Under the pieces are notes generated by a model. That model worked only from the letters and a program-made list of their open reading frames with translations. It had not been told where the DNA came from and made no database searches. Shown piece after piece: positions 22,668 through 62,086 of a stretch of 64,000 nt of DNA (within the stretch, counting starts at the first letter, position 1; each line of letters opens with the position of its first letter). This DNA is from Candidatus Magasanikiibacteriota bacterium (GTDB lineage Bacteria > Patescibacteriota > Patescibacteriia > Magasanikbacterales > UBA922). Where the stretch lies: contig JACPSK010000001.1 of assembly GCA_016193335.1 (NCBI GenBank), positions 22,716 to 86,715 on the forward strand. Reading direction: 5' to 3'. The translations under genes and the position numbers were made by a program.

Positions 22668-25600
22668 TCACTTGATTAAAAAATCAAACATTGGTTTTTT
22701 GTCAGAAGACAAGCCCTTATACGTAAAAATATATTTTCTACGATTTTTGGCTTCATACACTATATTTTTATCTTTGCTCCACTGATCAGACACAGGCATA
22801 TTCATATTCTTATTTGTTTTTATTTTAACTAATCCTGTTTGGGAATTAAACTTATACATATCTATTAAAAAAACAATAGATCCATTTTCATAAAGAGCTT
22901 TTTGTCCGGCACAAATTTTATTCAAACCGATTTTCATTTTTAATGTCTCGGCGCAGTCAGCAACAGTGGGTTGTATTATATTGAATTCAAAATCAGCAAT
23001 TGTCCCCTTGCTACCCTTGTATATAAACGTATATATGTTTCCATCTCCCAACATATACTTCGCCGGTTTTCCGAGCGCCCATTCAGCACTCGCTGGCAAT
23101 CCGTCCAATTCAGATTCCATCTTATCCACCAGCATAATTTGAGAATCAAAATGATCTACAAACATCAAAAGTCTTTGATCCCCGTCTATATATTCGAGTT
23201 GCTGCTGAGGACACAATGTATTCGCACCTTTTTTTAAAACGAGATATTTGGCGCAAAAATTCCCGTCTTCATCGAATGACTCATCTTCCGGTATCGTTAT
23301 GATCCTGTCTATTTTATTGATAAGGTACGTTTTTTTAGAGCCACTCGGCCAATACACAAAAAGCTCTTTTATATCCGATGCTGTTTTTTTGCCCAATCCA
23401 AAATGCGCGATTCTTGGATCCTGCCCTCCAGATTGACGCGTTAAGAGTATTTGGTCGCTCGCCACTTGTCCATCAACAAAGCGCAGCTCCACGCGTGCTC
23501 CGATCGCGTCTCTATTGCTTTCGGCACCACGAAGACTAATTTGTAGCCAATGATGAGCTCCTCCTTTTTCATACAAAGAATTTTTATACAATTTATGATA
23601 CCACTTGGCCGTAGGTATATGCACGTCCAAATCGCCGTCACGATCATAATCTACCCAGACTGCGTTTGCGTCCCATGAATCATACTGATTGAATGTGCCT
23701 TGAACGCCCTCCAGCGCGGCGCGCTCTTCATAATCCTTGTGATTGCCCAGATCTCTAAATAGTCTATTGTATCCTTGCTTTGAATAGGTGAAAAAAATAT
23801 CAGGATTGCCGTCGTTATCATAATCTGTCCAGGTAATCGGACCCGCGCCCAGATGTGTTTCTGTCTTGGGAATGTAAGGACTCTGCATTTCAAAAAAAAT
23901 TTCGCCATTATAAGGCTGCATCGTGTTATTCACCAATATAGTATCAGTGGCAAAATCTTTCTCTAGGGTGGGCAATCGATCTTGGAGATAAATATCTATG
24001 TCTCCATCATTATCATAATCTTTAAAAGCAATATCGAGGTGATGAATACCTCCAGAACTTCCGGACACCTCAATCTTTTTTACGAACGAAAAAGATGAAC
24101 CGGACTGATTTTTAAATAAAAAGATACCATTCTTCTCCTCAGCGCTAGAAAAAGAACTTGACCCGAGTATGTCCAAAAAACCATCGTTGTCATAATCCAA
24201 AAAATATAGTCTATCCATCGTATGTGACAATCCCCCTACTAAGGTGTCTTCTTCAAAAATCCAAGGCTCTTTCTGGAAAAAAACTTTAATAGCAAAATAC
24301 GGAGGAACACCACCATAGATACCTGAGTCAACTATATCCAACAAGCCATTTTTATCTATATCAGCGATAGAAAAACTACTATAGCTATTAACATCCTCGT
24401 CAATGATTTTTTTGGAAAAATATCCTAACCCATTATTTTCCAGTATGAGCAACTGCTGATTTTTGGGAGTATCCACGATAGATAGATTGGCCACATCAGC
24501 AATAATATCCTGGTCTCCATCATTATCCATATCTGCCGTATGTACTCGTCTAACAATAAAATTTTCGTTAAAAATCGCGGCCTTTAATCCATTATAATCA
24601 GGCGGAATGTTGAAAAAACCCTTAGTATTAAAGGCAATAAAATACTGCATGGGGTCTTGGTCATGCTCTCCCACAAGTTCATCAATCCATTCATCCCCAT
24701 TCAACTGCGCCCAAATAACACCCCTGGCGTATCCAATCTTAAAAGGATTAATTATTGTATGGTTCTGTTCAATTCCCGCCTGTGCCGCGACATCTACGAA
24801 ATTACTGTCATTACCGGTCCCTACCACCTCTATGGGTGCCGCGGGGTTCTCCGCGTTGCTGAGAAAGCTGATGTTCCCTGATTCCACTGCTGCCTGTGTC
24901 GGAACAAATGAAAGCAACAAAGTAGTCTCGCCATATGCCGGTACGGAGAAAGGAAAATTTGTTTTTGACACGAAATGTGGATTATTGCTTTCCAATCCAG
25001 TAACAATCAAGGATTCACTCCCATGATTATACACTTCAACCTCATATGTTTGTTCAGACCCTATGGCAGAAAAAAAATCAATGTGATCCGGCGCATAAGA
25101 AATAAATGATGAAGGATTATCCAGGATTATACTCTCCATATCGAGCAGAGAATCAGCCCCGACACTGAATTCAATCGTTTTGTCGGCATGCCCTTTTTTA
25201 GAGAATTGCAATGAATAAGTCCCCGCAGGCAAGGCAAACTCGTATTGACCGTATTTATCCGTGTACAGCTCATACGACAAATTATTGAGCACAAGAGAGA
25301 TCCGGACAAATGGAACTCCCTTACCCACTGCGTTTTTGACGGTGCCATATACGGTCGCGTGGTTAAGCGCCAAATCTATGGCAGAAATAATATCTACAAT
25401 CCCGGCACCGGCATCCATATCTTTTCCATTATCAAATCCGACATTGACAGATGTAAATTGAAGAATCGATTTTATTTTTCCAGGGGAAAGATATGCCGTA
25501 TTTTTTTCAAAATAAGCTTGCTGGATAAGGGCAATCGCTCCTGTTACCATGGGAGCCGACATGGAAGTTCCGGAAAGTTCCTTATAGATGGCGCTTTCAA

Positions 25601-26948
25601 AACCTTCGTTGGGTTTATAATTTATGTATCCACCTTTTGGCACAGAAGACAATATGTTTGTTCCAGGTGCTGAAACATCTGGTTTTATATACTCTTCTCC
25701 CAAATAAACCGCAGGCCCTTTAGAACTTCCTGGATTGATTTCTCCATCTTCATCTGAATTGCCAACCAATAATAAAGGTGGGTATCTGTGTAGCCCTTTT
25801 ATAGAACCCGGTCCAGCGCCACCGGAATTTCCGGCCGAGAAAACCACGCTTATTCCCATATCCTCCAAAGCGTCAATCCAGTATGTCAATCCAGCAGTTA
25901 AACTGTTGATCCAAGAATTATTTACTACGATCGGATAATCATCGGTAGTAATATCATTATCCGGATTTGCCACCCACTCCAATGATGCGGGAGCGAAACC
26001 GCTTCGGGCAAACACATACGTTGAAGAAGGCGCCACGCCAATATATTTGTTCTCATCGACATTGGATTCTCCCTCTTTTGCCTCTCCTCCCAACACGATA
26101 CCGGCCACATGAGTACCATGAGAATTTGCGCTATAGGTAGGGGTTGAAATTTTATATCCGTCGAAAAACGCTAATTCTCCGGTGCCCGGACCGCTTTGTA
26201 TAGTATCCATTTTCCCTAGCAAAGCAGGGTGTTCCGCGTATATATCAGAATCAACAATGCCCACTCGAATCCCTTTTCCTGTGTATCCCTTTTCCCAAGC
26301 TTCAGGCGCTTTTATTGTTTCAGGGCCGTAAAAAGCCTTCGCGGCTGATTGGCTTTCTGCAAGGCCATCTGTTGCCTCGTCCGCCACTTCCTCGGCGTGC
26401 TCTATAATCGGGTACAGATCAATTATTTTAATGTCAGAGTTCGCGTTGAGACTAATAATCGTTTGAAATGAAATTTTGCCAGAAAATCCGCTTACCAGCG
26501 TGTACCAATGAAGATCGGTGATGTCGCCGTTTTGCTGTGCGCGGGCTATCAGGTTCTTGATTGAGTTTGTATCAGTATCTCTATCCAATTTTGCGGCCAC
26601 GTTTTGTTTGCGGCGGATAACTTCGCGATAATTACCCTGTACTCCTCGGGTGTCCGCCTGTTCTTCTAGGATGACCAACACATTATATGTTTGTTCTGGG
26701 GCACCTTCTAAAATTTGTTTTCTTAACTCAGGCGTAAGTTTTTCCAATGCATAAAGTGCGCTTTCATCTTCATACAAAATAAGTTCCTCATTCTCATCAG
26801 ATAAGTCTCTTCTTCCTTCTCTGTCATCTTGAGCAGGTGAGATACGCGAAAAACTTGCCACAGCGGCCAGCATGCTTATTCCCAAAAACATGCCAGCAAG
26901 CGCCAATTTCAAGTGAGTAGTTGTTTTTATGAGTTGTTTAGTCTCCAT
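22668..26948 (-). CDS. Giant secreted subtilisin-like (S8) serine peptidase with FG-GAP/VCBS-type repeats
   Basis: Signal peptide; S8 triad motifs VGIVDSDI, HGTHVAGIV, GTSMSAPMVTGAIALI; repeated D-x-D-x-D-G-D-x-D calcium-binding FG-GAP-like units (DMDNDGDQDII, DYDNDGDIDIY). Confidence 0.8.
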   Translation of the reverse strand: METKQLIKTTTHLKLALAGMFLGISMLAAVASFSRISPAQDDREGRRDLSDENEELILYEDESALYALEKLTPELRKQILEGAPEQTYNVLVILEEQADTRGVQGNYREVIRRKQNVAAKLDRDTDTNSIKNLIARAQQNGDITDLHWYTLVSGFSGKISFQTIISLNANSDIKIIDLYPIIEHAEEVADEATDGLAESQSAAKAFYGPETIKAPEAWEKGYTGKGIRVGIVDSDIYAEHPALLGKMDTIQSGPGTGELAFFDGYKISTPTYSANSHGTHVAGIVLGGEAKEGESNVDENKYIGVAPSSTYVFARSGFAPASLEWVANPDNDITTDDYPIVVNNSWINSLTAGLTYWIDALEDMGISVVFSAGNSGGAGPGSIKGLHRYPPLLLVGNSDEDGEINPGSSKGPAVYLGEEYIKPDVSAPGTNILSSVPKGGYINYKPNEGFESAIYKELSGTSMSAPMVTGAIALIQQAYFEKNTAYLSPGKIKSILQFTSVNVGFDNGKDMDAGAGIVDIISAIDLALNHATVYGTVKNAVGKGVPFVRISLVLNNLSYELYTDKYGQYEFALPAGTYSLQFSKKGHADKTIEFSVGADSLLDMESIILDNPSSFISYAPDHIDFFSAIGSEQTYEVEVYNHGSESLIVTGLESNNPHFVSKTNFPFSVPAYGETTLLLSFVPTQAAVESGNISFLSNAENPAAPIEVVGTGNDSNFVDVAAQAGIEQNHTIINPFKIGYARGVIWAQLNGDEWIDELVGEHDQDPMQYFIAFNTKGFFNIPPDYNGLKAAIFNENFIVRRVHTADMDNDGDQDIIADVANLSIVDTPKNQQLLILENNGLGYFSKKIIDEDVNSYSSFSIADIDKNGLLDIVDSGIYGGVPPYFAIKVFFQKEPWIFEEDTLVGGLSHTMDRLYFLDYDNDGFLDILGSSSFSSAEEKNGIFLFKNQSGSSFSFVKKIEVSGSSGGIHHLDIAFKDYDNDGDIDIYLQDRLPTLEKDFATDTILVNNTMQPYNGEIFFEMQSPYIPKTETHLGAGPITWTDYDNDGNPDIFFTYSKQGYNRLFRDLGNHKDYEERAALEGVQGTFNQYDSWDANAVWVDYDRDGDLDVHIPTAKWYHKLYKNSLYEKGGAHHWLQISLRGAESNRDAIGARVELRFVDGQVASDQILLTRQSGGQDPRIAHFGLGKKTASDIKELFVYWPSGSKKTYLINKIDRIITIPEDESFDEDGNFCAKYLVLKKGANTLCPQQQLEYIDGDQRLLMFVDHFDSQIMLVDKMESELDGLPASAEWALGKPAKYMLGDGNIYTFIYKGSKGTIADFEFNIIQPTVADCAETLKMKIGLNKICAGQKALYENGSIVFLIDMYKFNSQTGLVKIKTNKNMNMPVSDQWSKDKNIVYEAKNRRKYIFTYKGLSSDKKPMFDFLIK

Positions 26949-28080: not shown

Positions 28081-28176
28081 AAAAGACTTATTTTGTACCC
28101 GCCAATTCAGTGATTACCTTCATTTAAACATATTCTATTTTATTTTTAAAGATCCAGGTCCTGGCTCGCTTATCAA

Positions 28177-28225
28177 TTTTTGAAAGAAAAATATGCCTTA
28201 TTTCAGGCATATTTTTCTTTCAAAA
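28177..28225 (-). terminator. Long perfect hairpin (tttgaaagaaaaatatgcc / ggcatatttttctttcaaa) immediately 3' of the intron-containing tRNA
   Basis: 19-bp inverted repeat with 7-nt loop read directly. Confidence 0.5.
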
Positions 28226-28231
28226 ATTTCG

Positions 28232-28693
28232 CTCGGCGGGTGGGATTCGGACCCACGACCAATTGGTTACACCGTTCTTCCTGTTTCCAAGAAGGATGGA
28301 CTATATCATCACCCGCGCCGAAAACCTCCCGATACAATCGAGAAGAGCGCTAGGGTGCGAGGCACTTCCCCCGGCATAGGCCGGGGTACTCCCTTGCGGG
28401 ATAGTCTCTGAACCTTTATTAATGTCCGTCGGCTCCACAGGCTCGCCCTTTCAAGCTAACATTGATGGACTACCGACTCGCCTTTTGGCAAGACATTAAA
28501 ACTTGGCTGCTGATCACCCTCCCCTCCGCATCGGGTGGGGTTAGGGTTTCCAGTTCCGTATCTTATCACTAAAAGTGAAAAAGCACAGAATCCCGTTAAG
28601 AGCGGGACAATTCACCTCGTTTTCATCCCCGCATTTCTGCGAGGCGCTGCATTTTAGTCACAGCCAACTGCTCTACCACTGAGCTACCGCCGA
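28232..28693 (-). tRNA. tRNA gene interrupted by a ~390-nt group I intron in the anticodon loop (isotype unresolved: Thr-UGU, Asn-GUU or His-GUG depending on splice sites)
   Basis: 5' exon UCGGCGG-UA-GCUCAGUGGUAGAGC-A-GUUGG-CUGUGA; 3' exon A-CCAAU-UGGUC-GUGGGUCCGAAUCCCAC-CCGCCGA-G. The two ends form a perfect 7-bp acceptor stem. Intervening RNA has group I P7/R elements GGUAGUCC and CAGAGACUAUCC. Confidence 0.65.
28268..28657 (-). ncRNA. Group I intron (no internal ORF), boundaries +/- a few nt
   Basis: Conserved UCAGAGACUA (R) and GUAGUC (P7 5' strand) elements; flanked by tRNA exons. Confidence 0.55.
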
Positions 28694-29643: not shown

Positions 29644-29916
29644 TTAACCTTGCTGCCCGAGTTGTTCAAAATAGTTTTTCAGCTGTTTCTTTATATACTT
29701 ACGTCCGGAACCACCTTTCAAAAATTTCTCTCTGCCCAATGCATCCTGCTTATTCACATAGCACTCGAAATAAATCAGCTTCCATCCCGGTTTGATTGAG
29801 GTTGTTCGTGAGCCATTGCCGGAAAGATGATCAAACAATCTCCTCTTGAGATTTTTTGTAAAACCAATATACCAACTTTTATCTACTTTATTTTCTAAAA
29901 CGTAAACAAAGTACAT
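29644..29916 (-). CDS. Stand-alone GIY-YIG nuclease-domain protein
   Basis: MYFVYVLENKVDKSWYIGFTKNLKRRLFDH matches GIY...YIG...R...E/N topology. Confidence 0.7.
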   Translation of the reverse strand: MYFVYVLENKVDKSWYIGFTKNLKRRLFDHLSGNGSRTTSIKPGWKLIYFECYVNKQDALGREKFLKGGSGRKYIKKQLKNYFEQLGQQG

Positions 29917-30018
29917 AGCCCCTCCATCAATAAATTATAATTTGACTAGCTACGCAAAATTCGCTTCGCTCATCGCGTAGCACCGCGATAATTTGCTTTG
30001 CAAAATTATTTTGCGGTG

Positions 30019-30089
30019 CTCGGGGACAGGGATTCGAACCCCGATACGCAGCTTCAAAGGCTACTGTCCTACCATTAGACGATCCCCGA
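30019..30089 (-). tRNA. tRNA-Gln (anticodon UUG)
   Basis: UCGGGGA acceptor pairs perfectly with UCCCCGA; D-arm GUCUAAUGGUAGGAC; anticodon stem GUAGC/GCUGC with loop CUUUGAA; T-arm CGGGGUUCGAAUCCCUG. Confidence 0.75.
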
Positions 30090-49470: not shown

Positions 49471-50991
49471 TCAATTTTGAGTGCGCAGAGCTTCTATACA
49501 AAGCTCAAAATCATTCCATATCTGTTCGACTTCTACGGCACTGTGGCCTATAACCGTACAACCAAATTTCCCAAAATCTTTCATGGGACTAATCATATGC
49601 ATAAAAACACCGCTTTTTTTCTTATGATTAAAATCAAGTCCTGTCATTTTGATCTGTCCAATAAGTCGTGTCGGCTCTATCCGCCTTAGCCAATCTTGTC
49701 TGCCAAAAGCTTCGGATGCCTTGTAATAGATGTCGCCTTGTTCGGATTCCAAGATGCCTCTTTTTTCATTATATACGGCCTCTGTAAGATACTTCACCCA
49801 AAAATAGGTGTGATTTGTGCCTCCTTTGCGGGCGTTTATTTCCACCGGCCACAAAGACCAAGGTTCTCGCGCATTTTTTCTGCTCAACAAAAAATCCACG
49901 GCTATTATCCCCAAAGCTCCGCGCCTTCTCGTCTCCTTGACAATTTTCAGTCCGGCGTCAACAATAAACTTTTGATATGTGAAATCCGCTGGAAATTTAA
50001 CACCCACATAATCCAAACCCTCCAATATCTGGTCATGAGTGGCAAGAGCTCGAATAGAATGATCAGGTAAAATTTCAAACTGCGCGCTTGGCGAAATTTT
50101 TATAGGCTCATCAATAAATACTTCCACGACCGCGCCCTGCTCGGCGCACGCACGTTCAAAAATAAAAAAATCTTGGCGTATACCTTTCTTAAGAGCCTTT
50201 TTAAATGTTTCAAAAGAAATGAAATTTTGAATTGAAAATTTGACAATGCCGTGTCCCGCGCCTCCACGATTTAGTTTGAGCAGATAATTTTTTACTTTTT
50301 GTTTTTTAGCAAGCTTCTGTAGGACATCATAAGCATGCTCCAAGGAAAAAATATCTTTCTCTCCTGGTATCAGATCCAAACCCGCCTTGGAAAAAACGTC
50401 ACGAGCTTCTGATTTGCTGTTCAAAGCCAAGGACGAATCTGTTAAACCGTATAGCGGAATCTGAAGAAGCACCGCAAGTCTGATTTCCTCAACATTCACT
50501 TGAAAAAATTCAACAAAGGCAGGCTGATTGTATTGTTCGATTGTCTCTTTGATTTTTTTAACATATTCGGAATTGTTCAATATGACTTCTGTAAGTGATT
50601 TCCCTTTTTTTGTGGGTATAGTTAAGATATCAAAACGTCCGCGTAATTCAGGCCTGTCCATTCCTGTAACTTTTGCAAGATGATCAAAAAAATAATCAAC
50701 AATGCAAGGCTCAAAACCTTCCGACAAAACGGCGATCACATGAGTTTTCGGCTGTTTCAAAAAATACGCGAAATACAAATAGCGTTCTTCGTAAAAAACA
50801 GAACCTTCAAATTCCCGCAAAATAAACTTATCAAAAGAAATGCTTGGAATAATCACTAAAGTCCTTCCGCCAGAATAATCTGGTTCTACAATATCGAAAT
50901 TTTTTGCAAGGTCAAACATAAGATGCGGGAAATTGAATCTACAAAAATATAAAGAAACTGTCATGAAATCATGGCTATGGCCATATTTCAC
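49471..50991 (-). CDS. ATP-grasp fold protein (unassigned subfamily)
   Basis: KLNRGGAGHGIVKF and AVDFLLSRKNAREPWSLWPVEINARKGGTNHTY resemble ATP-grasp large-domain strands. Confidence 0.45.
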   Translation of the reverse strand: MKYGHSHDFMTVSLYFCRFNFPHLMFDLAKNFDIVEPDYSGGRTLVIIPSISFDKFILREFEGSVFYEERYLYFAYFLKQPKTHVIAVLSEGFEPCIVDYFFDHLAKVTGMDRPELRGRFDILTIPTKKGKSLTEVILNNSEYVKKIKETIEQYNQPAFVEFFQVNVEEIRLAVLLQIPLYGLTDSSLALNSKSEARDVFSKAGLDLIPGEKDIFSLEHAYDVLQKLAKKQKVKNYLLKLNRGGAGHGIVKFSIQNFISFETFKKALKKGIRQDFFIFERACAEQGAVVEVFIDEPIKISPSAQFEILPDHSIRALATHDQILEGLDYVGVKFPADFTYQKFIVDAGLKIVKETRRRGALGIIAVDFLLSRKNAREPWSLWPVEINARKGGTNHTYFWVKYLTEAVYNEKRGILESEQGDIYYKASEAFGRQDWLRRIEPTRLIGQIKMTGLDFNHKKKSGVFMHMISPMKDFGKFGCTVIGHSAVEVEQIWNDFELCIEALRTQN

Positions 50992-51034
50992 AAAATCAAA
51001 CTAAACTATCCCCTTTGCGATCTCATATTTTATT

Positions 51035-52537
51035 TCACAATTTTCTCACCAAGCCCGCGTAGCCGTCTACTTCCACCATGTCGCCGTCCTTTAATACATC
51101 TCTCGCGAAGCGCGTTTGTATCACGCAGGGGATGCCGGCCTCTCGGGCCAAAGTGGCGGGGTGGGAGGTAATGCCATGGCCGCCGTCGCAGACTATGGCG
51201 CTCGCTTTTATAATAGCCGTGGAAAAACTGGGAACCACTTGCACACTCACGATTACATCTCCCTTTTCAACTTTATGACATTCGTCGGGATTCATCACGA
51301 TTTTAACAGGACCCTGTGCTTTGCCGGGGGAAACCGGCATGCCGGTAAATTCCGTCATCCGAGGGTCTGCGACACAAAATTCTTTATAAAATTTCTCTGC
51401 TTCTTCTCCGGTCGTCAGCTCCGTTTCTTTCCCTTCTCGTGCCCGCCACAGAGACAAAGTCATCTGTTCATTTACTTCATCCGAAAGATTCTCTCCATCA
51501 AGCAAAGCACGTCTCAGTTGGTCGGTTTTCAAAAAACGAACCTGCTTGAGAGCCAAATGAGCGCGTTTGCCGATTTCTTTAAGTACCGGATCAAAATGGT
51601 ACAAAGATTCAGCCACATAACGCTTGCGTAATTCTTTTAGATGCGCCGCGTCGCGCATGGCTTGAAATAATCCCGCTTCTTCTTTATTCAAAGCTAAAGT
51701 GCTCGTGTATTCTGTCTGTTTGTCTTCAATTTCCTGTAAATCATTGAGTAACATTTTGTGTTCTTCTCGGGGGTCTTGGCCAAGAAGCTCTTTAAGAAGT
51801 TTCACGATACTTGGAATATCTAAGACAGGATCCTCATAATCACGCGTAACCCAATAATAGGCTTCAAGATGTTGTTGCATTAAGGCATACAAAGATGCGT
51901 CACTTTGCAGATCCTTGAGAGTGGCATCGAGCAGAGTCTTCTTCCATCGGTGATTGTTTGCTATCTGTATAGCCAATTCAAGCAAAGCCTTTCTATGCAC
52001 CGTGGATACCATTGCCGAGGGTTGTTTGGTTAAAATATTGAGCATCTCCGAAGCTTGTGAAGGATTATCTGAAATTCTTTTTTCAATAATCTTATACAAC
52101 TCTTCATTCAGATAGTCTTCCATAATCCAGATCGTGCCATAACTTGTGTACACGATTTTATACAACCCTTCATATTCGAGCCAGGCATTGTATAATTCTT
52201 CATTTGAGAAGGAACGCAAATCTTTGCTGGAAATACGTTTACAAAATTCAACGAGAATTGTTCCATTTTTATTCTGTAAATCAACAAAACGCGCGTACAT
52301 CCCGGGGTCTTTATGCAGAAGCTCCACAATATGTCGTCCGATCTCTTCAAAACTTTTGGCATCGTGGAAATAAATACCGAGCCTGTCTTTATATATCATC
52401 ATGGTATCTTTGAGATTCATGTCCACATATTCGTGGAGCATTTCAGTCATACCCTCCAGAGACATATAATTCGGGAACGGGCTGATGCGCTGACGCTGTG
52501 AAAGTAAAATCCATTTCCCGCTCTGTTGTTTCGTCAT
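51035..52537 (-). CDS. PEP-utilizer phosphohistidine (swivel) domain protein with ~400-aa helical N-terminal domain, paralog 1 (RPH substrate-binding + His-like)
   Basis: C-terminus GGHGITSHPATLAREAGIPCVIQTRFARDVLKDGDMVEVDGYAGLVRKL. Confidence 0.7.
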   Translation of the reverse strand: MTKQQSGKWILLSQRQRISPFPNYMSLEGMTEMLHEYVDMNLKDTMMIYKDRLGIYFHDAKSFEEIGRHIVELLHKDPGMYARFVDLQNKNGTILVEFCKRISSKDLRSFSNEELYNAWLEYEGLYKIVYTSYGTIWIMEDYLNEELYKIIEKRISDNPSQASEMLNILTKQPSAMVSTVHRKALLELAIQIANNHRWKKTLLDATLKDLQSDASLYALMQQHLEAYYWVTRDYEDPVLDIPSIVKLLKELLGQDPREEHKMLLNDLQEIEDKQTEYTSTLALNKEEAGLFQAMRDAAHLKELRKRYVAESLYHFDPVLKEIGKRAHLALKQVRFLKTDQLRRALLDGENLSDEVNEQMTLSLWRAREGKETELTTGEEAEKFYKEFCVADPRMTEFTGMPVSPGKAQGPVKIVMNPDECHKVEKGDVIVSVQVVPSFSTAIIKASAIVCDGGHGITSHPATLAREAGIPCVIQTRFARDVLKDGDMVEVDGYAGLVRKL

Positions 52538-52556
52538 AATATTAAAAATGCTTTAT

Positions 52557-53402
52557 TTACTCAATTTTGGGTTGTAGACGAGTTTCTATATCCTTTCCCC
52601 ACACGGAGAAAGTGGGATTTTCATTCAAAGAAAAATCAACCTTAAAGCCCTCCGCGTTCTCTATACCGCCTCCGCGTTCAACCGGAGTGAGACCCGTACG
52701 GGCGCTCACCACAGCATCAATGGCAGTGGCATTGGCAGCGCTCACTACGACAATGCGTTTCCCTGGTCCAAGCTGCTTCGCGAGCATAGCCACTCTCTTC
52801 TCGGCCAGCGCTATTCCTTCCTCAACGCGAGCATTCACCTGTTCCGGTCTTTCAACTTCATCGGGCCAGTCGGCAAGAAACCAGGTAGCTACACGCTTAT
52901 CTTGGATAGTTTCTGGAATGCCTAAGGCTCTGTGACGTTCTGGATCGTCCAATTGCGCTTTATACTCATCCGGTATATTGGCGGCGCCAATATCTCTGCG
53001 CGAGCGAGACTTTGGCTCGTCAATCGTACGCAATCCTTCATGCTGCGCATGCATCTCGCCTGTTTGCGGATCCCAACGCATTTTTATTGGTGAAAAAAAT
53101 GTAAATCCACCCTCCTTCAACCGTTCCGCGACACGCATGACAGAAAGTTCTGCGCGCGGATTCCCACTGTCGAAAACCTGAATAATATCCTTGTCCGGGT
53201 CCAATTCACTCATCAAACGTTCTGCCGCCTGATCCAGCTGTGATTCTCCTTCCGGCGTCAAACCACGCTTGGGGTTTGTTTTATCTTTTGTAGTTTCTCC
53301 ATGACGCAAAACATAAGCAGTCATTACCGGCATTTCACGCCTTATTTCTCGATATTCACGAGGAACTTCACCATGGGCGCCGTCTGGCATAGTATAATTC
53401 AC
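52557..53402 (-). CDS. Histidine phosphatase superfamily (phosphoglycerate-mutase-like) protein
   Basis: RHG motif YVLRHGETT near N-terminus. GC looks elevated (about 50%) versus neighbours. Confidence 0.55.
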   Translation of the reverse strand: MNYTMPDGAHGEVPREYREIRREMPVMTAYVLRHGETTKDKTNPKRGLTPEGESQLDQAAERLMSELDPDKDIIQVFDSGNPRAELSVMRVAERLKEGGFTFFSPIKMRWDPQTGEMHAQHEGLRTIDEPKSRSRRDIGAANIPDEYKAQLDDPERHRALGIPETIQDKRVATWFLADWPDEVERPEQVNARVEEGIALAEKRVAMLAKQLGPGKRIVVVSAANATAIDAVVSARTGLTPVERGGGIENAEGFKVDFSLNENPTFSVWGKDIETRLQPKIE

Positions 53403-53495
53403 TAAAATATTGACTTATGTAATAAAAATTTCTCAGATGTACCTCTGCTCGCGTCAAGTATATAAACCTTTTATGTTTAAGACAAGAAAGAACCT

Positions 53496-54101
53496 TTACC
53501 CGCCACAGACCTTATATATACGCGCTATCGCATCTCCCACGTTTTTGTACAAAATAGTCCGGGCTCCCATTCGTTTTGGTTCTTTCAAATTAGCCTCCTG
53601 GTCATCAATGTAAAGCATCTCTTCCGGTTTGACGCGAAAACGCTGACAGAGAAAATACATCGTCTCGGATTTTGCTTTTGGCAATCGATATTCCCATGTA
53701 TTGATCATATTCTTTGAACCAAACACTTTCCAGACTTCGGGGAATAAAACGCGTGTATCGGCCCATTGACTCCGCATATTTTTGGTAAGAATGATAATGC
53801 GGTACTTATTTTTTAATCGCTTTGCGCAATGCAGTATGGGCTTGTTTACTGAAAGCAAACTATAATGCAAATTTCGCAATTCTTTAATGGTTAAAGGTAA
53901 ACTCAAATCCTGTATGGTCCGTGTCCATGCCTCAGTTTGAGTGATTTCCCGCAAAGCCGCCCTGTTTACATATTTTGTGTACATGACTTCATATACCCGC
54001 TCGTATGGAATGCTGAGACGGCGAGACAGAGCTCTGGCCGTGGCCACATAACCACCTTTAAAAATCACACCATGAGCGTCGAAGATGATAAGCTTAATCA
54101 T
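53496..54101 (-). CDS. HAD-like hydrolase (variant motif I D-A-H)
   Basis: LIIFDAHGVIF motif I-like and YIDDQEANL motif IV. Confidence 0.45.
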   Translation of the reverse strand: MIKLIIFDAHGVIFKGGYVATARALSRRLSIPYERVYEVMYTKYVNRAALREITQTEAWTRTIQDLSLPLTIKELRNLHYSLLSVNKPILHCAKRLKNKYRIIILTKNMRSQWADTRVLFPEVWKVFGSKNMINTWEYRLPKAKSETMYFLCQRFRVKPEEMLYIDDQEANLKEPKRMGARTILYKNVGDAIARIYKVCGG

Positions 54102-54234
54102 AAACTCATATAATTAATCGGCCAACATATAAAATTACAATCAATTTCACAGCCTTTCTGTAGCAGACTGAGGGAGTAAGGGATACATTTTTTCATGACA
54201 AGTCGCATTGACTTTAGATTCAGTATATCCCAGA

Positions 54235-55749
54235 TCACAGCTTTCTGACTATCCCTCTGCGCGCGTCCACTTCCACCATGTCACCGTCTTTCAGCACCTT
54301 TGTAGCGATCTTAGTGCCTATCACGCAAGGAATCCCAAGTTCCCGAGAAACAATGGCCGCGTGGCAGGTAATGCCGCCCATGTCGGTAACAATGGCGGCA
54401 GCCTTTTTCATGGCTGACACGATTTCCGGGATGGTCATTTCAGACACCAGTATATCGCCCTTCTCCATTTTAACCATCTCTTTGGTGCTATTTATGATTT
54501 TCACAGAACCTGTGGCCATTCCAGCAAAGGCGATCTGTCCGCTTAGCTCAGTGACGTTCTCTGTATCAGTCTTTTCTTCTTGATCAATCCTCATGCGTGC
54601 TTTCAGTCCTCTCGCCGCTTCTCCGCTCACAAACTCAGCCTGTTCTGTATTAGCGTCAAGAAACAACAAGGAATATTCACTCCGTTCACGCAAAAGCTCG
54701 GCGTCTGTTCCGCCCTTCATCAATGCTTCTTTTAATTCGTCGGGCAAAAGAAAGGGAATATGCTCCATGCTTACATACAAACGACGAGCGGCTTCCCGCA
54801 GTATCCGATGAAGCGTGTACCAAGACATATACTGGTGTTCCTTGCTCCACCCACGCTGAAACATAAAATCTTTGGCAATACGGAATACGGCGCGATACTG
54901 CGCATCCATGTTTAAGAGAGAATATAGACGATCCTGTTCACGTAATGTATTCTTCAATTGATCCTCATGCGCCTTGATCTGTTCTACAATATGAATTTCA
55001 ACGCCTGCGTTCAAAATTTCATTCACATGAGAAATAATATCTTTTTGGGTCCAGGCCGGCCCTACACAGCCAAAAGCCAAAAAAGCATATTTTTGGGTAT
55101 GTTCGATAATAGTCGGATCTTCTGGAGATAAAGAGATCTCGCCCCTCTCGGCTCTCTGAGCAAGTTTAAGCGTATCAATATGCTCTTGACTGATAAGGGT
55201 GTGATCCGTGGGTGTAGTAAGTGTAGAGAGGGTTACTCCGGGGCTTATGGCAAGTCCTCTTTCTTTTATTATTCTCTCTAAATAATCCAGCAAAAAAATA
55301 CTAAAAGCCTCGAAATGCAAATCCATATTCCAGGCGATCGCTCTAATGACATGCAAACGTTGCATCGGATGATATAATTCATCAAAGAGCTCTATCAGTT
55401 CTCTGTTCGTGAGCGATTTTATATCTGTGTTATGAACAATTTTTTTATGCAATTCTTGGATGCGAGGAACCAAAACCGTATTTGATTCATGATGCAGATC
55501 ATCAATCCATTCCGGACGATTCAAAATGGTTTGAATACTGTGTTCAGCGGTCTGTCTCCATTCTGCCCCGATTTGATACATGTTGGTAAGAATTCCCTGA
55601 TATTCATATATGCCTCTAAGAGGCGGTTCCATGCCAAAAGATTTGTTTGAAACAATAAGAGGAGTAAGCAAATGCAGAGGAGGATACTTATGCAGTTTTT
55701 CAATCAAAAGCCAGTGTTCGGATAAAAACGCGGTATGCAGATTGTTCAT
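54235..55749 (-). CDS. PEP-utilizer phosphohistidine domain protein, paralog 2
   Basis: C-terminus GGITCHAAIVSRELGIPCVIGTKIATKVLKDGDMVEVDARRGIVRKL. Confidence 0.7.
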   Translation of the reverse strand: MNNLHTAFLSEHWLLIEKLHKYPPLHLLTPLIVSNKSFGMEPPLRGIYEYQGILTNMYQIGAEWRQTAEHSIQTILNRPEWIDDLHHESNTVLVPRIQELHKKIVHNTDIKSLTNRELIELFDELYHPMQRLHVIRAIAWNMDLHFEAFSIFLLDYLERIIKERGLAISPGVTLSTLTTPTDHTLISQEHIDTLKLAQRAERGEISLSPEDPTIIEHTQKYAFLAFGCVGPAWTQKDIISHVNEILNAGVEIHIVEQIKAHEDQLKNTLREQDRLYSLLNMDAQYRAVFRIAKDFMFQRGWSKEHQYMSWYTLHRILREAARRLYVSMEHIPFLLPDELKEALMKGGTDAELLRERSEYSLLFLDANTEQAEFVSGEAARGLKARMRIDQEEKTDTENVTELSGQIAFAGMATGSVKIINSTKEMVKMEKGDILVSEMTIPEIVSAMKKAAAIVTDMGGITCHAAIVSRELGIPCVIGTKIATKVLKDGDMVEVDARRGIVRKL

Positions 55750-55884
55750 AAAACAGTTTGAAATTTGTTAGTCATCCAGCTTAGAATTCCACTAAATGGG
55801 TTACCTTACCTGGAAAAATGTTAACGCGGGTTTTCGAAAAAACTGATACAAGGTTCATTTTACGATTTTCTCGCATCGCGAAAC

Positions 55885-57411
55885 TCAGAGTCTCTCAACT
55901 TTCCCATGAGTCGCGTCAACGCGTACTTTATCCCCATCGGCTAGCAAGCGCGTGACGTTTTTGACCCCTACCACACAAGGAATATTCAATTCACGGCTGA
56001 CAATTGCCGCGTGGCAGGTAACTCCCCCGTCTTCGGTGACTATAGCTCCGGCCTTTCGCATGGCAGGCAATAAACTGGGGAAAGTAGTATGCGCCAACAT
56101 GATATCGCCTTCATTCATTTTGTCCATTTCAGCGACCGTGTTGACAACCTTTACCTTAGCCACGATGTCGCCCGGGCAGGCACAGCTGCCTTGCAGTTCA
56201 TCGGCGTCTGATTCAAGTTCTTTTTCAAATTCAAGACTTTGTACAAAAAACTCCGCGGCTTCGCCGGTCAGTATATTTTGCCTGCCGTCAATATAGCTGA
56301 GTACGCTAAAAGCTCTGCGCTCGTTTACTATATGCGTATCCATATGTCCGCTCTTCAGAGCTCGGTTAAACTCTTCTTCAGTGAGATGATTAATTTGCGT
56401 CAATGAAACGCAGAGACGCCGAGCGGCCTCTTTGCGAAGCAGATCCATACAATAAAATCCGTAAAACATGGCGTATTTCCGAAAATCTTTGAGCCAAATG
56501 ATATCTCGAGCCACTCCGAGGAAATATCCTGTCTGCTCAGAAATCGGCAGTCGGTTTAGCAGTTGCTTCTGTTTTTCTTTGATGACCTCGTTTCTTTCCT
56601 CAGCTTCCCGAAGCGTCGAGGCCGCGTCTTGGCCGGAAGCAAAAAAATCCGCTAAAGCATACAAATAATGTTCAAGATGATAAGCCGGGCCAACGTATGT
56701 GTACGGCGTCCAACGCCATTTCTTGTAATGTTCAATAAGTAAACTGCGGCGTTCTTCGGCCATAGTCTCAAAACGCGCCTCTATTCCTTTTTTTGTATCA
56801 AATATATTTTTGGTATAAGCATCTTTGCCAATGGTTAGAGCCAGTCTCAAAAAATCGGTTTCTTCTGCCTGCGAAAAATTCTGTTCGCTTGGCGTGGTGA
56901 GCACGGTGTAGGCGCGCATAAGCTCTTCGTCATCATATCCGGACAAGTCATGTTTTAATTTTTCTATGATGTGTTTGGCGAGCAATTCACCATCGCTATC
57001 CACAAACCAGGTCGTGGAAACCGCGATCAGATGCCCTTCAATTTGCAAACGAGAGAGACGCGCGCTCATCTCTATGATCTCCTCATTGCTCAAGGTTCCG
57101 ATGTCTTTGGACTCTACCAGTCGGGCATAGGCTATATATTCTTTGTTAATTTTTCTGCACTGCTCGTGGATGCTTCGTACCCATGCCGGTTCATGTTTAA
57201 TCTTTTCTAAGACAGCCTTTATATACACGGTCATTTGATCGGCCGGAAAATAGGCGTCCGCGCCTTGATCTTTGTATATGATAATTCCGTCCTTTAACGT
57301 ATTGAGGAGCTCCGTTCGTTCTGCATATAAGATAATATCCCGAGGCAAATAATGCATGACCTTATAGTCGAGCAAACCCGGAATCATGGAAAAATTTTTC
57401 CGCCAAGCCAT
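55885..57411 (-). CDS. PEP-utilizer phosphohistidine domain protein, paralog 3
   Basis: C-terminus GGVTCHAAIVSRELNIPCVVGVKNVTRLLADGDKVRVDATHGKVERL. Confidence 0.7.
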   Translation of the reverse strand: MAWRKNFSMIPGLLDYKVMHYLPRDIILYAERTELLNTLKDGIIIYKDQGADAYFPADQMTVYIKAVLEKIKHEPAWVRSIHEQCRKINKEYIAYARLVESKDIGTLSNEEIIEMSARLSRLQIEGHLIAVSTTWFVDSDGELLAKHIIEKLKHDLSGYDDEELMRAYTVLTTPSEQNFSQAEETDFLRLALTIGKDAYTKNIFDTKKGIEARFETMAEERRSLLIEHYKKWRWTPYTYVGPAYHLEHYLYALADFFASGQDAASTLREAEERNEVIKEKQKQLLNRLPISEQTGYFLGVARDIIWLKDFRKYAMFYGFYCMDLLRKEAARRLCVSLTQINHLTEEEFNRALKSGHMDTHIVNERRAFSVLSYIDGRQNILTGEAAEFFVQSLEFEKELESDADELQGSCACPGDIVAKVKVVNTVAEMDKMNEGDIMLAHTTFPSLLPAMRKAGAIVTEDGGVTCHAAIVSRELNIPCVVGVKNVTRLLADGDKVRVDATHGKVERL

Positions 57412-57445
57412 ATGAACATAATGGTATACAATATGTTTGACAAAA

Positions 57446-57474
57446 GCAAGAAAAAATGCTATACTAAGCTGTTA
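57446..57474 (+). promoter_or_regulatory. Consensus sigma70-type promoter TTGACA-17-TATACT upstream of the high-GC gene 57652..58368
   Basis: ttgacaaaagcaagaaaaaatgctatact read directly. AT-rich, host-like. Confidence 0.5.
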
Positions 57475-57651
57475 TTCTTCAATATATACATTCTGCTTAT
57501 TCAAGCAGAATTTTATCGTTTATTTTGAGTCTGTCTCTGGTCTTAATAAACTAAGGCAAAAGACAGGCCCAAAACGCGCGCCTGCTTCGGGCTGAGCTAC
57601 CCTCTCTCAAGGGTGCTGAAGCAGAATCTCACAACGACAAGGGAGAAAAAC

Positions 57652-58368
57652 ATGGCCTTGGCCAAGGTGTCCGTCTACGACTTGCGTCACTATGAGAGGC
57701 AGAAGGGTTGTCCCGGTCAACCCCCGACCTTGTACGGGGAACTGACCTGCCGCGTGTTGCGAGAGATTTTGCTCGGGCGCAGGGCGCTCGAGGACATGCT
57801 GGTCTTGACCAGTCCGCAGGAGCGGGCCTGGGGGACCGGGCGCCTCGTTGCCTCGCCTGAGGCCGAGATGGGCCACTTTGACATGCGGAAGATGAACTGG
57901 CTCGAGAGCGCCACCACGCGCCTCATGGATGGCGGCAAGGAGCTCACCGAGCTAGCCGGCCGCTTCGGGGTCAGTGTCGAGCAGGCGCTCATGGTCCTGC
58001 CCCAGTTCGCGAGCCTTGTTTGCGACTGGACCGTGGAGGCCTTCTTCGGCCTCACGGGTGCCATCGCGGATGGCGAGCACCAGAACGTCTTGATGTTCTC
58101 GCATGGCGGGCAGGTGGATGCCCGAGCCATTTTCATGAAGAAGTTCAAGGCAGAGCCGGGCATGAAGCCGCAGAACTTGAAGCCGATGCTCGACATGCGC
58201 TTCCTGAACGGCCGCTGCGCCGACACCTGCGAGGGCTACGTCTACGACCTCCAGGTGGACACCGCGGCCGGCCTCATCGAGCGGGTCTTCGATGTTCAGC
58301 GCATCGAGCTCCCGGCCCAGTTCAAGGCACTGGGGGGCGGCGCCCTGGACCGCCTGCTCGCCGGCTGA
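57652..58368 (+). CDS. Hypothetical protein on a high-GC island (start at MALAKV with GGGAGA RBS)
   Basis: GC3-rich codon usage unlike flanks. Sole plus-strand gene within a minus-strand cluster. Confidence 0.5.
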   Translation: MALAKVSVYDLRHYERQKGCPGQPPTLYGELTCRVLREILLGRRALEDMLVLTSPQERAWGTGRLVASPEAEMGHFDMRKMNWLESATTRLMDGGKELTELAGRFGVSVEQALMVLPQFASLVCDWTVEAFFGLTGAIADGEHQNVLMFSHGGQVDARAIFMKKFKAEPGMKPQNLKPMLDMRFLNGRCADTCEGYVYDLQVDTAAGLIERVFDVQRIELPAQFKALGGGALDRLLAG

Positions 58369-58559
58369 TCTTTTCCGCGGCCGCCAAATCTAGCCCGATT
58401 CGGGCAGATACCTATCCGGCGGCCGCGCTTCGCCCCTCCTTTTCGACTGCTCTTTGGAGCGCGTCCCAATAATCGGTCCCTACCACTACCGATGGACGCG
58501 CTCTTCCCACCTCTTATGCGTTTTGTCTTTATCCGCTCCATAAGACGCTTGAGAAGTAA

Positions 58560-58590
58560 AAACATCCGGCTAAGCCGGATGTTTTTTGTT
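58560..58590. terminator. Bidirectional rho-independent terminator (aaaaacatccggctaagccggatgttttttg)
   Basis: Perfect stem flanked by an A-run and a T-run. Confidence 0.6.
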
Positions 58591-58596
58591 GATTTT

Positions 58597-58932
58597 CTAT
58601 GATTCTGATTTCTGCACTTCCAGACGCTTGACTCGTTTTTTCAAAACCACTATTTCTCTGGCAAACAAACCGCCGTCTTCATGGACTTTTGTTTCAAGAT
58701 TTTCAAAGCGAATATCGATTTTATCCAAGGTATAATGAACTTGGGAGAGTTCAGCTTTCACAGAACACATATCTTCGTTAAGAATTGAGACCTGTTGTTG
58801 CAAAACCGAAGTATCGGCTTTAAGTTCGCTTCTCAATTCCCGGATATCCTCTTTTGTCGCCGCAGTATCCTTTATGAAAATGACAATATCCAATATATCA
58901 TTTAATTTCTCTTCAAACATCTCTGACGTCAT
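58597..58932 (-). CDS. Small coiled-coil protein, paralog of 48976..49383
   Basis: Shared N-terminal FEEKLNDILDIVIFIKDTAA motif; heptad-rich. Confidence 0.5.
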   Translation of the reverse strand: MTSEMFEEKLNDILDIVIFIKDTAATKEDIRELRSELKADTSVLQQQVSILNEDMCSVKAELSQVHYTLDKIDIRFENLETKVHEDGGLFAREIVVLKKRVKRLEVQKSES

Positions 58933-59030
58933 AATAGTATTCCTCCCTTCTATACTTCACAGCTAGCAGTGAAGTACTTCAGTGTAAATTAATAGTACAA
59001 TTCCAATAATACTTCAGACATCACTGCCTA

Positions 59031-60569
59031 TCAAGGCAAAAGATTAAATTTTTCTAATCTACGTACTATACCAAGCGCGGTGTCTACTTCCACCATATCA
59101 CCATCTTTCAATATTTTTGTCGCGCATCTTGTACCTACAATGCAAGGCAGACCCAGCTCTCTCGACACAATGGCCGCGTGCGAGAGCAAACCGCCTTCAT
59201 CCGTTACAATGGCCCCGGCACGTTCCATGGCTGGCACAAGAAGCGGATTTGTTGCCGAAGCCACCAAAATATCGCCCCGCTCCAATCGTTCCGCGTTTTT
59301 ATTCGTAAGCACAATACAAACTCTGCCCTCACAAGGCAAGGCGCTTTTCGAGGCGACCTGACCCTTCAATTCTTTCACCATATCATACTCTTCGTAACGC
59401 AGCTCATCTTTCTTATATTCAATCAGATCAGCCCCCACATATACCATAATCGTCTTGTCATCGAGCACAATGCTCGGGTCCTTTGCTCGAGCCTCGAGAT
59501 CCTCTGAATTGACTTCCAAAACGCCAGCCTTAAGAGATCGCAATAATTCCTCACCCCGAAGATTCACCAGCTTAATATAGGAAATATCAAAGTCATTCGC
59601 AAGGCGTTGAAATAAAGTACTAAACGTATGCACCGCGTAAGCGTAAGAAGCCTCAGCATTATTGGAAGCCGCCGCCCAAGCGGCCGCTGAATTAATATGC
59701 TTTAAAGTTACGTCTGATAAACCGAGGATATCTCGAAGCAGAAATCCTTTTTTGCTCATGCGTTTCGCTTCCTCGATTTTTTTTCGCTCTTTATCCAAAC
59801 CTTTTTTTATTAAATCCCGCACGCGATTTGTTAAGACTTCTCTATCGTATCCACTGCCATGCAAGAGATACCTGCCCAAATGAGCAAACATAGCGAGATG
59901 AGCATCCACTCTTCGATTGAATTCTTCATTCATACCATGGGATTCGGCATATTCAGCCAACTCACACAAGGCAATTCGTTCCAGTTGGTATTCCGAGCTC
60001 TCGGGAAGTTGTAATAAGTCGTTAAAATATTCATTTTGTTTCAGGACATCGCCTTCAGATTCTGCAATGGCTTTTAAAATAATATCAGAGAGAATGCGGT
60101 TGACCATCACATAGTGATAGGCATATGCCCACTGCGACCTCGTAGTCAACAAAAATCCTTCCATAGCCGTATAAATACTTGTTGAATCAGCCCGACTAAA
60201 ATCCGTATCTTTGTATGTGTCCGCATGTGAACGCACTCGCCGCATGCGCGCATTATAATCATGAGCATAATCCACCAGTATGCCCGGGCTGGATAATTCT
60301 AGATTCCGTAGATATTCAATGTAATCATCGTATGTCCTTTTCGAAAACCAACGCGCGCCGTCCAGCTGCCGATACTCACAGGGTTCATATTCTGTTTGTT
60401 TTTCGTATAATCCAAGCAAGCCATGGCGATAGGCTTCCATGACCGTATCAATCAAAAGCACTGGATGCGGATCGCCGCGACGCGCGACTTCAACCCAAAA
60501 CGTCATATAAACCTGTTTATATTTTACGAATAATTCCTCTTTTCGCGTCCACTTCCACGGTATCGCCAT
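59031..60569 (-). CDS. PEP-utilizer phosphohistidine domain protein, paralog 4 (start trimmed to MAIPWKW to avoid 92-nt overlap with paralog 5)
   Basis: C-terminus GGLLSHAAIVSRELGLPCIVGTRCATKILKDGDMVEVDTALGIVRRL. Confidence 0.65.
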   Translation of the reverse strand: MAIPWKWTRKEELFVKYKQVYMTFWVEVARRGDPHPVLLIDTVMEAYRHGLLGLYEKQTEYEPCEYRQLDGARWFSKRTYDDYIEYLRNLELSSPGILVDYAHDYNARMRRVRSHADTYKDTDFSRADSTSIYTAMEGFLLTTRSQWAYAYHYVMVNRILSDIILKAIAESEGDVLKQNEYFNDLLQLPESSEYQLERIALCELAEYAESHGMNEEFNRRVDAHLAMFAHLGRYLLHGSGYDREVLTNRVRDLIKKGLDKERKKIEEAKRMSKKGFLLRDILGLSDVTLKHINSAAAWAAASNNAEASYAYAVHTFSTLFQRLANDFDISYIKLVNLRGEELLRSLKAGVLEVNSEDLEARAKDPSIVLDDKTIMVYVGADLIEYKKDELRYEEYDMVKELKGQVASKSALPCEGRVCIVLTNKNAERLERGDILVASATNPLLVPAMERAGAIVTDEGGLLSHAAIVSRELGLPCIVGTRCATKILKDGDMVEVDTALGIVRRLEKFNLLP

Positions 60570-62037: not shown

Positions 62038-62086
62038 ATCTGTCTTTGTGCTTGAGAATCCTTCAGCATGATTCTAAGGCAGGTAA

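Follow-up and report, generated by a model that had tools for sequence, protein, structure and literature searches.

An intron of IA-type layout without an open reading frame in the tRNA-Asn(GUU) gene of a probable relative of Magasanikbacteria

Detection of the split tRNA gene

A tRNA gene on the minus strand of contig JACPSK010000001.1 (assembly GCA_016193335.1) is split in its anticodon loop by a group I intron, as supported by a covariance-model match, covariation over 50 introns and homology to introns shown to splice. Throughout the text, the window denotes the whole 64,000-nucleotide (nt) stretch of this contig that was analysed. The gene is very probably the tRNA-Asn(GUU) gene of a member of the ultra-small Patescibacteria related to Magasanikbacteria, interrupted between nt 35 and 36 by a 390-nt intron that has an IA-type layout, carries no open reading frame (ORF) and, by analogy with assayed homologues, would be self-splicing. 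The intron is a further member of a published class, real but ordinary for Patescibacteria, and the current understanding of group I introns and tRNA identity is unchanged by it.

The Rfam model RF00028 (Intron_gpI) matched 28277..28669 on the minus strand over its full length (model positions 1–253) with a score of 49.6 bits, corresponding to an E-value of 1.4e-11 in a search of 701 nt and of 1.3e-9 over the whole window. A first-pass annotation, made from the sequence alone, had proposed a tRNA gene split by a group I intron of ~390 nt and had named a covariance-model search with Intron_gpI beforehand as a refutation test. The significant match upheld this proposal, and its coordinates proved exact. 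The joined exons give a cloverleaf of 72 nt that comprises an acceptor stem of 7 bp and the D, anticodon and T arms. An independent assembly (L001) contains the same contig sequence without a single difference.

Default-mode ARAGORN and Rfam at gathering thresholds missed the split gene and reported three other tRNAs in the window, namely Gln, Thr(CGU) and Gly. Automatic Rfam annotation overlooks the intron because its score is 0.4 bit under the gathering cut-off of 50, and ARAGORN in intron mode (-i) calls the locus tRNA-Thr(UGU) with an intron between nt 33 and 34. Because the default tools miss the gene and the intron-aware one names Thr(UGU), the genome seems to be without tRNA-Asn. Its automatic annotation would lack this tRNA and give a false picture of how complete the genome is and of what it can decode, a problem that was also described by Nakagawa et al. 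(2026; mSystems, PMC13011429; preprint July 2025). A scan of the window against Rfam by E-value gave no further sub-threshold RNA family.

Splice junction and tRNA identity

All three candidate junctions (anticodons UGU, GUU and GUG) give exons that fold into a cloverleaf once joined, and the fold alone therefore cannot pick the junction. The first-pass annotation had considered the anticodon impossible to fix by eye among these three. However, it is GUU, with the junction between nt 35 and 36, because the U·G pair of helix P1 falls on U35, the intron ends in a terminal guanosine (G390), the pairing P9.0 explains the G at position −3 and the tRNA body with a masked anticodon matches tRNA-Asn. 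The U·G pair, which the earlier annotation had suggested locating, was set by the Rfam alignment on U35 (28660) and intron G10 within the helix GCUGU/GCAGC; U35, the last base of exon 1, is the −1 U of the 5′ splice site. A cut after U33 would pair U33 with A, not G. An intron ending in G results only from a junction at 35/36 or 33/34; for tRNA-His, the intron would have A as its first and U as its last base. At least 103 relatives, collected as described below, have a tRNA gene split at CUGU^...G^UAA (carets mark the splice sites), and the terminal G is present in 103/103. Position −3 holds A or C in 17 of these 103, and since no G stands there, the 33/34 junction breaks the terminal-G rule in those relatives. 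The common G at −3 pairs within P9.0, where CAC/GUG covaries with CAU/AUG; the ambiguity between Asn and Thr arises because this pairing creates a G at −3.

In a search with the anticodon-masked tRNA body, the closest annotated tRNAs of phage genomes were tRNA-Asn (85–88% identity among the 40 matches listed); Val, Lys and Met ranked below Asn in identity, and neither Thr nor His was among these 40. The acceptor pair U1-A72 and the discriminator G73 occur in 103/103 related tRNA-Asn genes. The pair U1-A72 is the element by which bacterial GatCAB accepts Asp-tRNA-Asn and Glu-tRNA-Gln and rejects tRNAs with G1-C72 (PMC1635274, PMC2811023), and it supports the assignment to Asn because it is a GatCAB determinant of both tRNA-Asn and tRNA-Gln. 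The first-pass annotation had rightly noticed the pair in both this tRNA and the tRNA-Gln of the window, but had described it as unusual; its presence in both is expected and not an oddity. U1-A72 and G73 would mark the product as a tRNA-Asn open to GatCAB amidation, a pathway that the organism may use. Neither GatCAB nor asparaginyl- or aspartyl-tRNA synthetase was found among the 10 large window ORFs scanned.

If the intron-mode call of ARAGORN were correct, the gene would be tRNA-Thr(UGU), with its intron two bases over (exon 1 ending in ...GGCU and exon 2 starting with UGUAACC). The shifted intron likewise begins and ends with G, and its joined exons give a cloverleaf. We nevertheless consider this very improbable, because P1 would then contain U33-A where the covariance model puts U·G on U35, the intron would end in A or C in the 17 relatives mentioned above, the masked body matches tRNA-Asn and not tRNA-Thr, and the acceptor end (U1-A72 and G73) differs from the Thr-type G1-C72 found in the tRNA-Thr(CGU) of the window. 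Moreover, an identical mis-call has been documented and experimentally corrected (PMC13011429). A junction one base more 3′ (exon 1 ...CUGUG, exon 2 AACC) would instead make the gene tRNA-His(GUG). Its exons also join into a cloverleaf, but exon 1 would end in G and the intron would run from A to U, so that both the −1 U and the terminal G would be missing. The identity of bacterial tRNA-His lies in G-1 and C73. G-1 is absent here, the base preceding U1 being U, and the discriminator is G73, not C73, so that the probability of tRNA-His is practically nil. Among the fetched loci of relatives, ARAGORN found only 11 neighbouring tRNAs, a small comparison set, none of which was Thr(UGU) or His.

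Intron fold and proposed splicing

The fold of the intron within tRNA-Asn(GUU) was derived from domain-wise folding and an alignment of the window intron with 49 ORF-less relatives (50 introns; Table 1). Over these 50 distinct introns, the 59 pairs from P1 to P9.0 were formed in 93.6% of cells, compared with 35–45% in a control in which the 3′ partners were slid by 1–3 columns. Compensatory changes were found in 27/59 pairs, with strong covariation in P2, P7.2, P8 and P9, and 0/500 shuffles reached the observed values. The conserved core helices P3–P8 and the P3/P7 pseudoknot are present and are supported by covariation as a set, P7 itself never varying. The window intron retains every residue that is invariant across the alignment, all of its helices pair, and its minimum-free-energy fold has a z-score of −5.1.

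The P1 pairing CUGU/GCAG is formed in 50/50 introns, and no P1 covariation was found past these 4 bp, the fifth guide base being C whatever exon nt 31 is. In P4, CUGG/UCAG covaries with CGGG/UCCG and CAGG/UCUG. The G254-C361 pair in P7, with A253 bulged, is the predicted guanosine-binding site. The first-pass annotation had named two core signatures, CAGAGACUA and GGUAGUCC, of which the second was misplaced: GGUAGUCC (28474..28467) sits in the P6 extension and does not pair with CAGAGACUA; the true 3′ strand of P7 is UAGUCC.

The presence of both P7.1 and P7.2 between P7 and P3′ is a hallmark of subgroup IA (Michel and Westhof 1990), and the window intron, in which both are present, has an IA-type layout. 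Subgroup IC3, which comprises compact introns without P7.1 and P7.2 inserted at 33/34, 34/35 or 36/37, was considered and rejected because the window intron has P7.1 and P7.2 and lies at 35/36.

In the proposed mechanism, a single precursor would be transcribed from the minus strand. As the sequence and its comparison with relatives show, the intron folds from P1 to P9, with exon nucleotides G31–U35 paired with the guide GCAGC and U35·G10 marking the 5′ splice site. Following the group I mechanism and the assays of homologues, free guanosine bound at the P7 site would attack after U35; P9.0 would bring G390 to the same P7 site, and the freed 3′ OH of U35 would attack after G390. Ligation of the exons would give the anticodon loop CU-GUU-AA. 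CCA would be added post-transcriptionally, because it is not encoded at the end of exon 2, and the transcript would probably end at the hairpin at 28228..28175. Splicing would be essential if this were the sole tRNA-Asn gene, and the gene is probably present in a single copy.

Table 1. Features of the split tRNA-Asn(GUU) locus and its surroundings in the window
Feature	Position	Strand	Description
tRNA-Asn(GUU) exon 1	28693..28660	minus	nt 1–35, 34 nt, UCGGCGG...GGCUGU; full sequence UCGGCGGUAGCUCAGUGGUAGAGCAGUUGGCUGU
Group I intron	28659..28270	minus	390 nt; first base G, last base G
tRNA-Asn exon 2	28269..28232	minus	nt 36–73, 38 nt, UAACCAAU...CCGCCGA-G73; full sequence UAACCAAUUGGUCGUGGGUCCGAAUCCCACCCGCCGAG
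P1	28664..28660 with 28650..28646	minus	Exon nt 31–35 GCUGU and internal guide GCAGC (intron nt 10–14); U35·G10 wobble
P2 hairpin	28644..28627	minus	CCUCGC-AGAAAU-GCGGGG; compensatory changes in 6/6 pairs
P3	28619..28613 with 28364..28358	minus	CGAGGUG with UGCCUCG; 97.7% of cells paired, 3 compensatory pairs
P4-P5 domain	28610..28507	minus	P4 and P5 pairs 90.8–100% paired
P4	28610..28608 and 28553..28550, with 28513..28507	minus	UUG and CUGG with UCAGCAG; 5′ strand split
P4 insert	28607..28554	minus	54 nt, intron nt 53–106, inside P4 5′ strand; two abutting hairpins, 28607..28591 and 28590..28554
P5	28547..28516	minus	Domain fold and alignment
P6	28506..28413	minus	Branched extension, ~70 extra nt; two closing C-G pairs invariant
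J6/7 and P7 5′ strand	28412..28402	minus	UUCA-GAGACUA (P7 28408..28402)
P7.1 hairpin	28401..28390	minus	UCCC-GCAA-GGGA; invariant, within search pattern
P7.2 hairpin	28386..28369	minus	Compensatory changes in 4/4 tested pairs
P8	28357..28310	minus	Compensatory changes in 4/5 outer pairs
P7 3′ strand	28303..28298	minus	UAGUCC; paired with P7 5′ strand in 50/50 introns
P9.0	28297..28296 with 28272..28271	minus	AU with GU; covaries
P9 hairpin	28294..28277	minus	GAAA loop; compensatory changes in 6/7 pairs
Terminal guanosine G390	28270	minus	G in 103/103 relatives
Perfect hairpin	28175..28228	minus	24 bp; U-run and A-run flanks; begins 4 nt past G73
GIY-YIG ORF	29644..29916	minus	90 amino acids, catalytic domain only; PF01541, E-value 6e-17
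tRNA-Gln(UUG)	30018..30089	minus	U1-A72 and G73 as in tRNA-Asn; found by ARAGORN and Rfam

Distribution and relationship to known introns

When species-representative genomes were scanned once with the J6/7-P7-P7.1 motif, at least 120 loci were identified. The motif lay inside a split tRNA in 103 of these, the remaining 17 loci not being parsed, and at least 103 species-level genomes of Patescibacteria have a homologue of the intron at this position. This intron type is very widespread, and the window provides one more instance of the class, from the Magasanikbacteria-like part of the phylum. Intron lengths in the relatives are bimodal (~210–360 nt and ~545–720 nt). Many of the loci (such as L014, L018, L020, L063, L013, L036, L053 and L064) come from metagenome-assembled genomes (MAGs) labelled "uncultured Gammaproteobacteria", "Woesearchaeota archaeon", "Omnitrophota", "Clostridium sp." or "Acutalibacteraceae". 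Such MAGs with this tRNA-Asn intron are probably mislabelled or mis-binned, as was suspected for a "Pacearchaeota" case (Williams 2020; bioRxiv 10.1101/2020.01.27.920355).

The type "Asn.4Ug" was listed computationally in the same work (Williams 2020). A survey of 95 complete Patescibacteria genomes found group I introns at 35/36 in 15 tRNA-Asn(GUU) and 3 tRNA-Asp(GUC) genes (Nakagawa et al. 2026). For one Asn and one Asp intron (GCA_016700035.1 and GCA_001029755.1), GTP-dependent splicing was shown in vitro and the ligated exons were sequenced, and a mutant with the terminal G changed to C was blocked. In that study, 25/28 introns at 35/36 were assigned to subgroup IA; subgroup IC accounted for 81% of bacterial tRNA introns but for none of those in Patescibacteria, and HNH endonuclease genes were found in four Patescibacteria Asn introns. 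Genes of this class were often missed by ARAGORN and tFind or called Thr(UGU) with the intron at 33/34, which is the annotation problem also seen in the window, where the gene is missed by default tools and mis-called Thr(UGU).

The window intron aligns along the whole core with 49 such introns. It shares the gene, the junction CUGU^...G^UAA and the phylum with the Patescibacteria tRNA-Asn introns at 35/36 in Table S3 of Nakagawa et al. (2026), as well as the core blocks GGUGAAUUG, CAGCAGCCAAG, GGUUCAGAGACUA and GAUAUAGUCC. In GCA_016700035.1, the intron of which was tested, the anticodon arm GUUGGCUGU^UAACCAAU is identical to that of the window tRNA, and the exons are identical at 61/72 positions. 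Its intron, however, has 234 nt, compared with 390 nt in the window, where the 54-nt two-hairpin P4 insert, a branched P6 longer by ~70 nt and both P7.1 and P7.2 are added. Two Paceibacteria introns of Table S3 (GCA_016699245.1 and GCA_026016225.1) and that of Candidatus Magasanikbacteria GW2011_GWA2_56_11 (L104) have the P7-P7.1 block GGUUCAGAGACUAUCCC..A.GGGAGUA in common with the window intron. The L104 intron (477 nt) further resembles it in its P4 insert, its long P6 and the syntenic ftsE/ftsX genes, whereas GCA_016699245.1 has a 1-nt bulge in place of the 54-nt insert. The exons of the window gene match those of L104 at 71/72 positions, and the peripheral intron sequences are unalignable between the window and its nearest relatives.

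Two better-known groups differ more strongly from the window intron. The classical IC3 introns of bacterial tRNAs, found at 34/35 in cyanobacterial tRNA-Leu(UAA), at 33/34 in tRNA-fMet and at 36/37 in Azoarcus tRNA-Ile and Agrobacterium tRNA-Arg, are likewise self-splicing, mostly ORF-less and placed within the anticodon loop, having a short P1 formed on anticodon-loop bases; however, they occupy other sites in other tRNAs, belong to another subgroup and lack P7.1 and P7.2. Phage group I introns with P7.1 and P7.2, such as those of T4 td and Twort orf142, belong to subgroup IA. The P7-P7.1 block of the window intron (28382..28416; intron nt 244–278) matched 12 phage genomes with 91–94% identity over 31–35 nt, and in some Escherichia phages the match overlaps genes annotated as DNA polymerase I or endonuclease. 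These matches suggest that related introns may be present in phage genes. Unlike the window intron, the phage introns interrupt protein-coding hosts, and they have no similarity to it outside the P7-P7.1 block.

Insertion in P4

Compared with a typical ORF-less relative of ~230 nt, the window intron has ~63 extra nt in P4-P5, ~70 in P6 and ~28 between P7 and P7′. The insert within the 5′ strand of P4 is predicted, on the modelled fold, to turn this helix into a four-way junction without linker bases. Among 98 resolvable relatives, P4 was unbroken in 69, carried a 1-nt bulge in 17 and contained an insert of 38–71 nt in 12, and the insert was recognised separately in L104, L119 and L129. Its bearers (the window, L067, L028, L119, L078, L086, L082, L051, L104, L019, L021, L042, L060, L090 and L129) represent about one in seven introns of the lineage, with insert sizes of 38–72 nt. 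The insertion site is where many relatives carry a single bulged base, and inserts occur whether or not the intron has a homing endonuclease gene.

Alignment with MAFFT and RNAalifold recovered only P4 and P5, the inserts being too divergent to align and giving no column-wise covariation. The inserts were instead folded one by one and compared with shuffled sequences. In 14/14 folded inserts of the genome set, the fold consisted of two abutting hairpins that include the first and last nucleotides of the insert. The same architecture was obtained again in 13 re-tested inserts, with L129 added (fold-energy z-scores of −3.2 to −6.8), and in only 4/2600 shuffles. In addition, both halves of the P4 5′ strand covary with the 3′ strand. 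Peripheral elements are not discussed in the survey of Nakagawa et al. (2026). Tentatively, and with well under even confidence, the insert could be a previously undescribed peripheral domain of group I introns that recurs in this lineage, including a small clade that also has a fixed C55 in the T-loop (see below). If truly new, it would be an unusual case of a ribozyme core helix tolerating, and perhaps using, a large insertion. Only this domain and the C55 T-loop may deserve closer attention; the smaller points of the present analysis are the origin of the Asn/Thr ambiguity in P9.0, the fast turnover of the intron periphery while exons stay identical, and the structured nature of the P4 insertion.

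The C55 T-loop

The T-loop of the split tRNA reads UCCGAAU, in which C55 (28250, minus strand) replaces the near-universal U55; C55 was unique among the 104 related genes compared. The identical 38-nt exon 2 was found in two other genomes from one Joint Genome Institute (JGI) metagenome, L129 (Ga0209541_10069186) and L130 (Ga0209541_10003324), and the 5′ exon is 97–100% identical among the three. As both of these genomes have the same exon, C55 is an inherited character of a small clade, not an error of sequencing. The introns of this trio differ: that of the window has 390 nt with the P4 insert, that of L129 has 634 nt with an HNH-type ORF and the P4 insert, and that of L130 has ~355 nt with neither. 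This contrast suggests either that the intron periphery turns over rapidly or that homing has replaced introns.

A scan of JGI metagenomes with the C55 exon found only intron-bearing genes. Some Logan contigs end within the locus: L124, L125 and L127, from three samples, end at 28269, the first base of exon 2, L128 ends at 28267, and L002 ends at 28666. These ends were considered as a sign of an intron-less allele or of spliced RNA and were rejected as evidence. Logan contigs are assembled with k=31, and the breaks are most likely an effect of the k=31 assembly graph caused by co-occurring relatives with the same anticodon and T arms but a different acceptor stem. A break at 28269 would be expected because the contig of one strain begins 30 nt ahead of the first base that distinguishes it from such a relative, and 28269 minus 30 gives 28239, the first base of the 3′ strand of the acceptor.

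Mobility and integrity of the locus

The first-pass annotation had described the intron as free of an ORF, and this description stands, the longest sense ORF having 45 amino acids. A tblastn search with 39 ORFs of at least 80 amino acids from related introns, mostly endonucleases, gave no significant sense-strand match in the intron; only tiny matches were obtained, and the recurrent ones lay on the opposite strand over exon 1 and the first intron bases. Against the whole window, the endonuclease ORFs of related introns gave nothing at an E-value of 1e-3 or below. In relatives with long introns (545–723 nt; loci among L012–L123), an ORF of ~80–125 amino acids, mostly 100–120, lies in the P1 loop and has CxxC...CANCH motifs and weak HNH matches (18–20 bits against a cut-off of 21.4), in line with the survey of Nakagawa et al. 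(2026). Because it has no homing endonuclease, the window intron is probably immobile and vertically inherited.

Two further explanations concern the state of the locus. A GIY-YIG ORF, already mentioned in the first-pass annotation, does exist ~1 kb away, and its GIY-YIG catalytic domain and a weak, 26.9-bit match to the I-TevI-like family TIGR01453 ("group I intron endonuclease"; profile positions 2–75 of 215) would be compatible with a homing endonuclease acting on the intron in trans. Nothing links it to the intron, however. With 90 amino acids it has no DNA-binding part and lies far below the TIGR01453 cut-off of 56.05, similar genes (35–40% identity) are near the intron in just 5 of the at least 120 loci, and related mobile introns have the HNH-type ORF in their P1 loop instead. 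The ORF is probably unrelated to the intron, and its action in trans is exceedingly improbable. Alternatively, the locus might be a decaying, non-functional copy, with a second tRNA-Asn gene elsewhere doing the work. Several observations weigh against a functional self-splicing intron and can be gathered here. The RF00028 score is below the Rfam gathering score and fails the curated inclusion cut-off. The Rfam alignment flags mismatches in P4 and P5, P4 is split by the 54-nt insert and P6 is greatly enlarged. C55 in place of U55, together with the split P4, leaves a small chance that the gene is decaying. In addition, the invariance of P7 and P7.1 is not independent evidence, since the relatives were gathered with a pattern covering J6/7-P7-P7.1 and both helices are part of it, and the 3′ exon offers no P10 pairing with the bases that lie 5′ of the internal guide; presumably, the anticodon stem holds the exons together. 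Decay is nevertheless improbable, given that all residues invariant across the 50 introns are kept and all helices pair, that the P4 insert is recurrent, well folded and also present in endonuclease-bearing introns, and that three different genomes share the C55 exon unchanged, which speaks for selection. Furthermore, an intron-less copy beside an intron-bearing one was reported to be rare (PMC13011429).

Host and neighbouring features

In Magasanikbacteria MAGs, the intron-bearing tRNA-Asn has syntenic neighbours whose products resemble those of the window (FtsE 73%, FtsX 60% and GreA 57% identical). From these neighbouring genes and the exons, not from a marker-gene phylogeny, we infer that the host is related to Candidatus Magasanikbacteria of the phylum Patescibacteria.

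Immediately downstream of the tRNA, the perfect hairpin at 28175..28228 has a folding free energy of −34.8 kcal/mol (z-score −8.3) and is likely to be a two-way transcription terminator between the tRNA and a CNNM/CBS gene. The same hairpin produced a spurious cluster of microRNA-family matches in the Rfam scan by E-value. A promoter and terminator scan gave chance-level matches only. Elsewhere in the window, a tandem array of at least five paralogous ORFs of ~500 amino acids lies within 49471..64000 on the minus strand (51035..52537, 54235..55749, 55885..57411, 59031..60608 and 60517..62037); the sole Pfam match of each is the C-terminal PEP-utilizers mobile domain, and an ATP-grasp-like ORF (49471..50991, minus strand) adjoins the array. 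A further ORF of 1426 amino acids (22668..26948, minus strand), for which Pfam reports Peptidase_S8, CarboxypepD_reg, FG-GAP_3 and UnbV_ASPIC on an identical protein, probably encodes a large secreted or surface protease.

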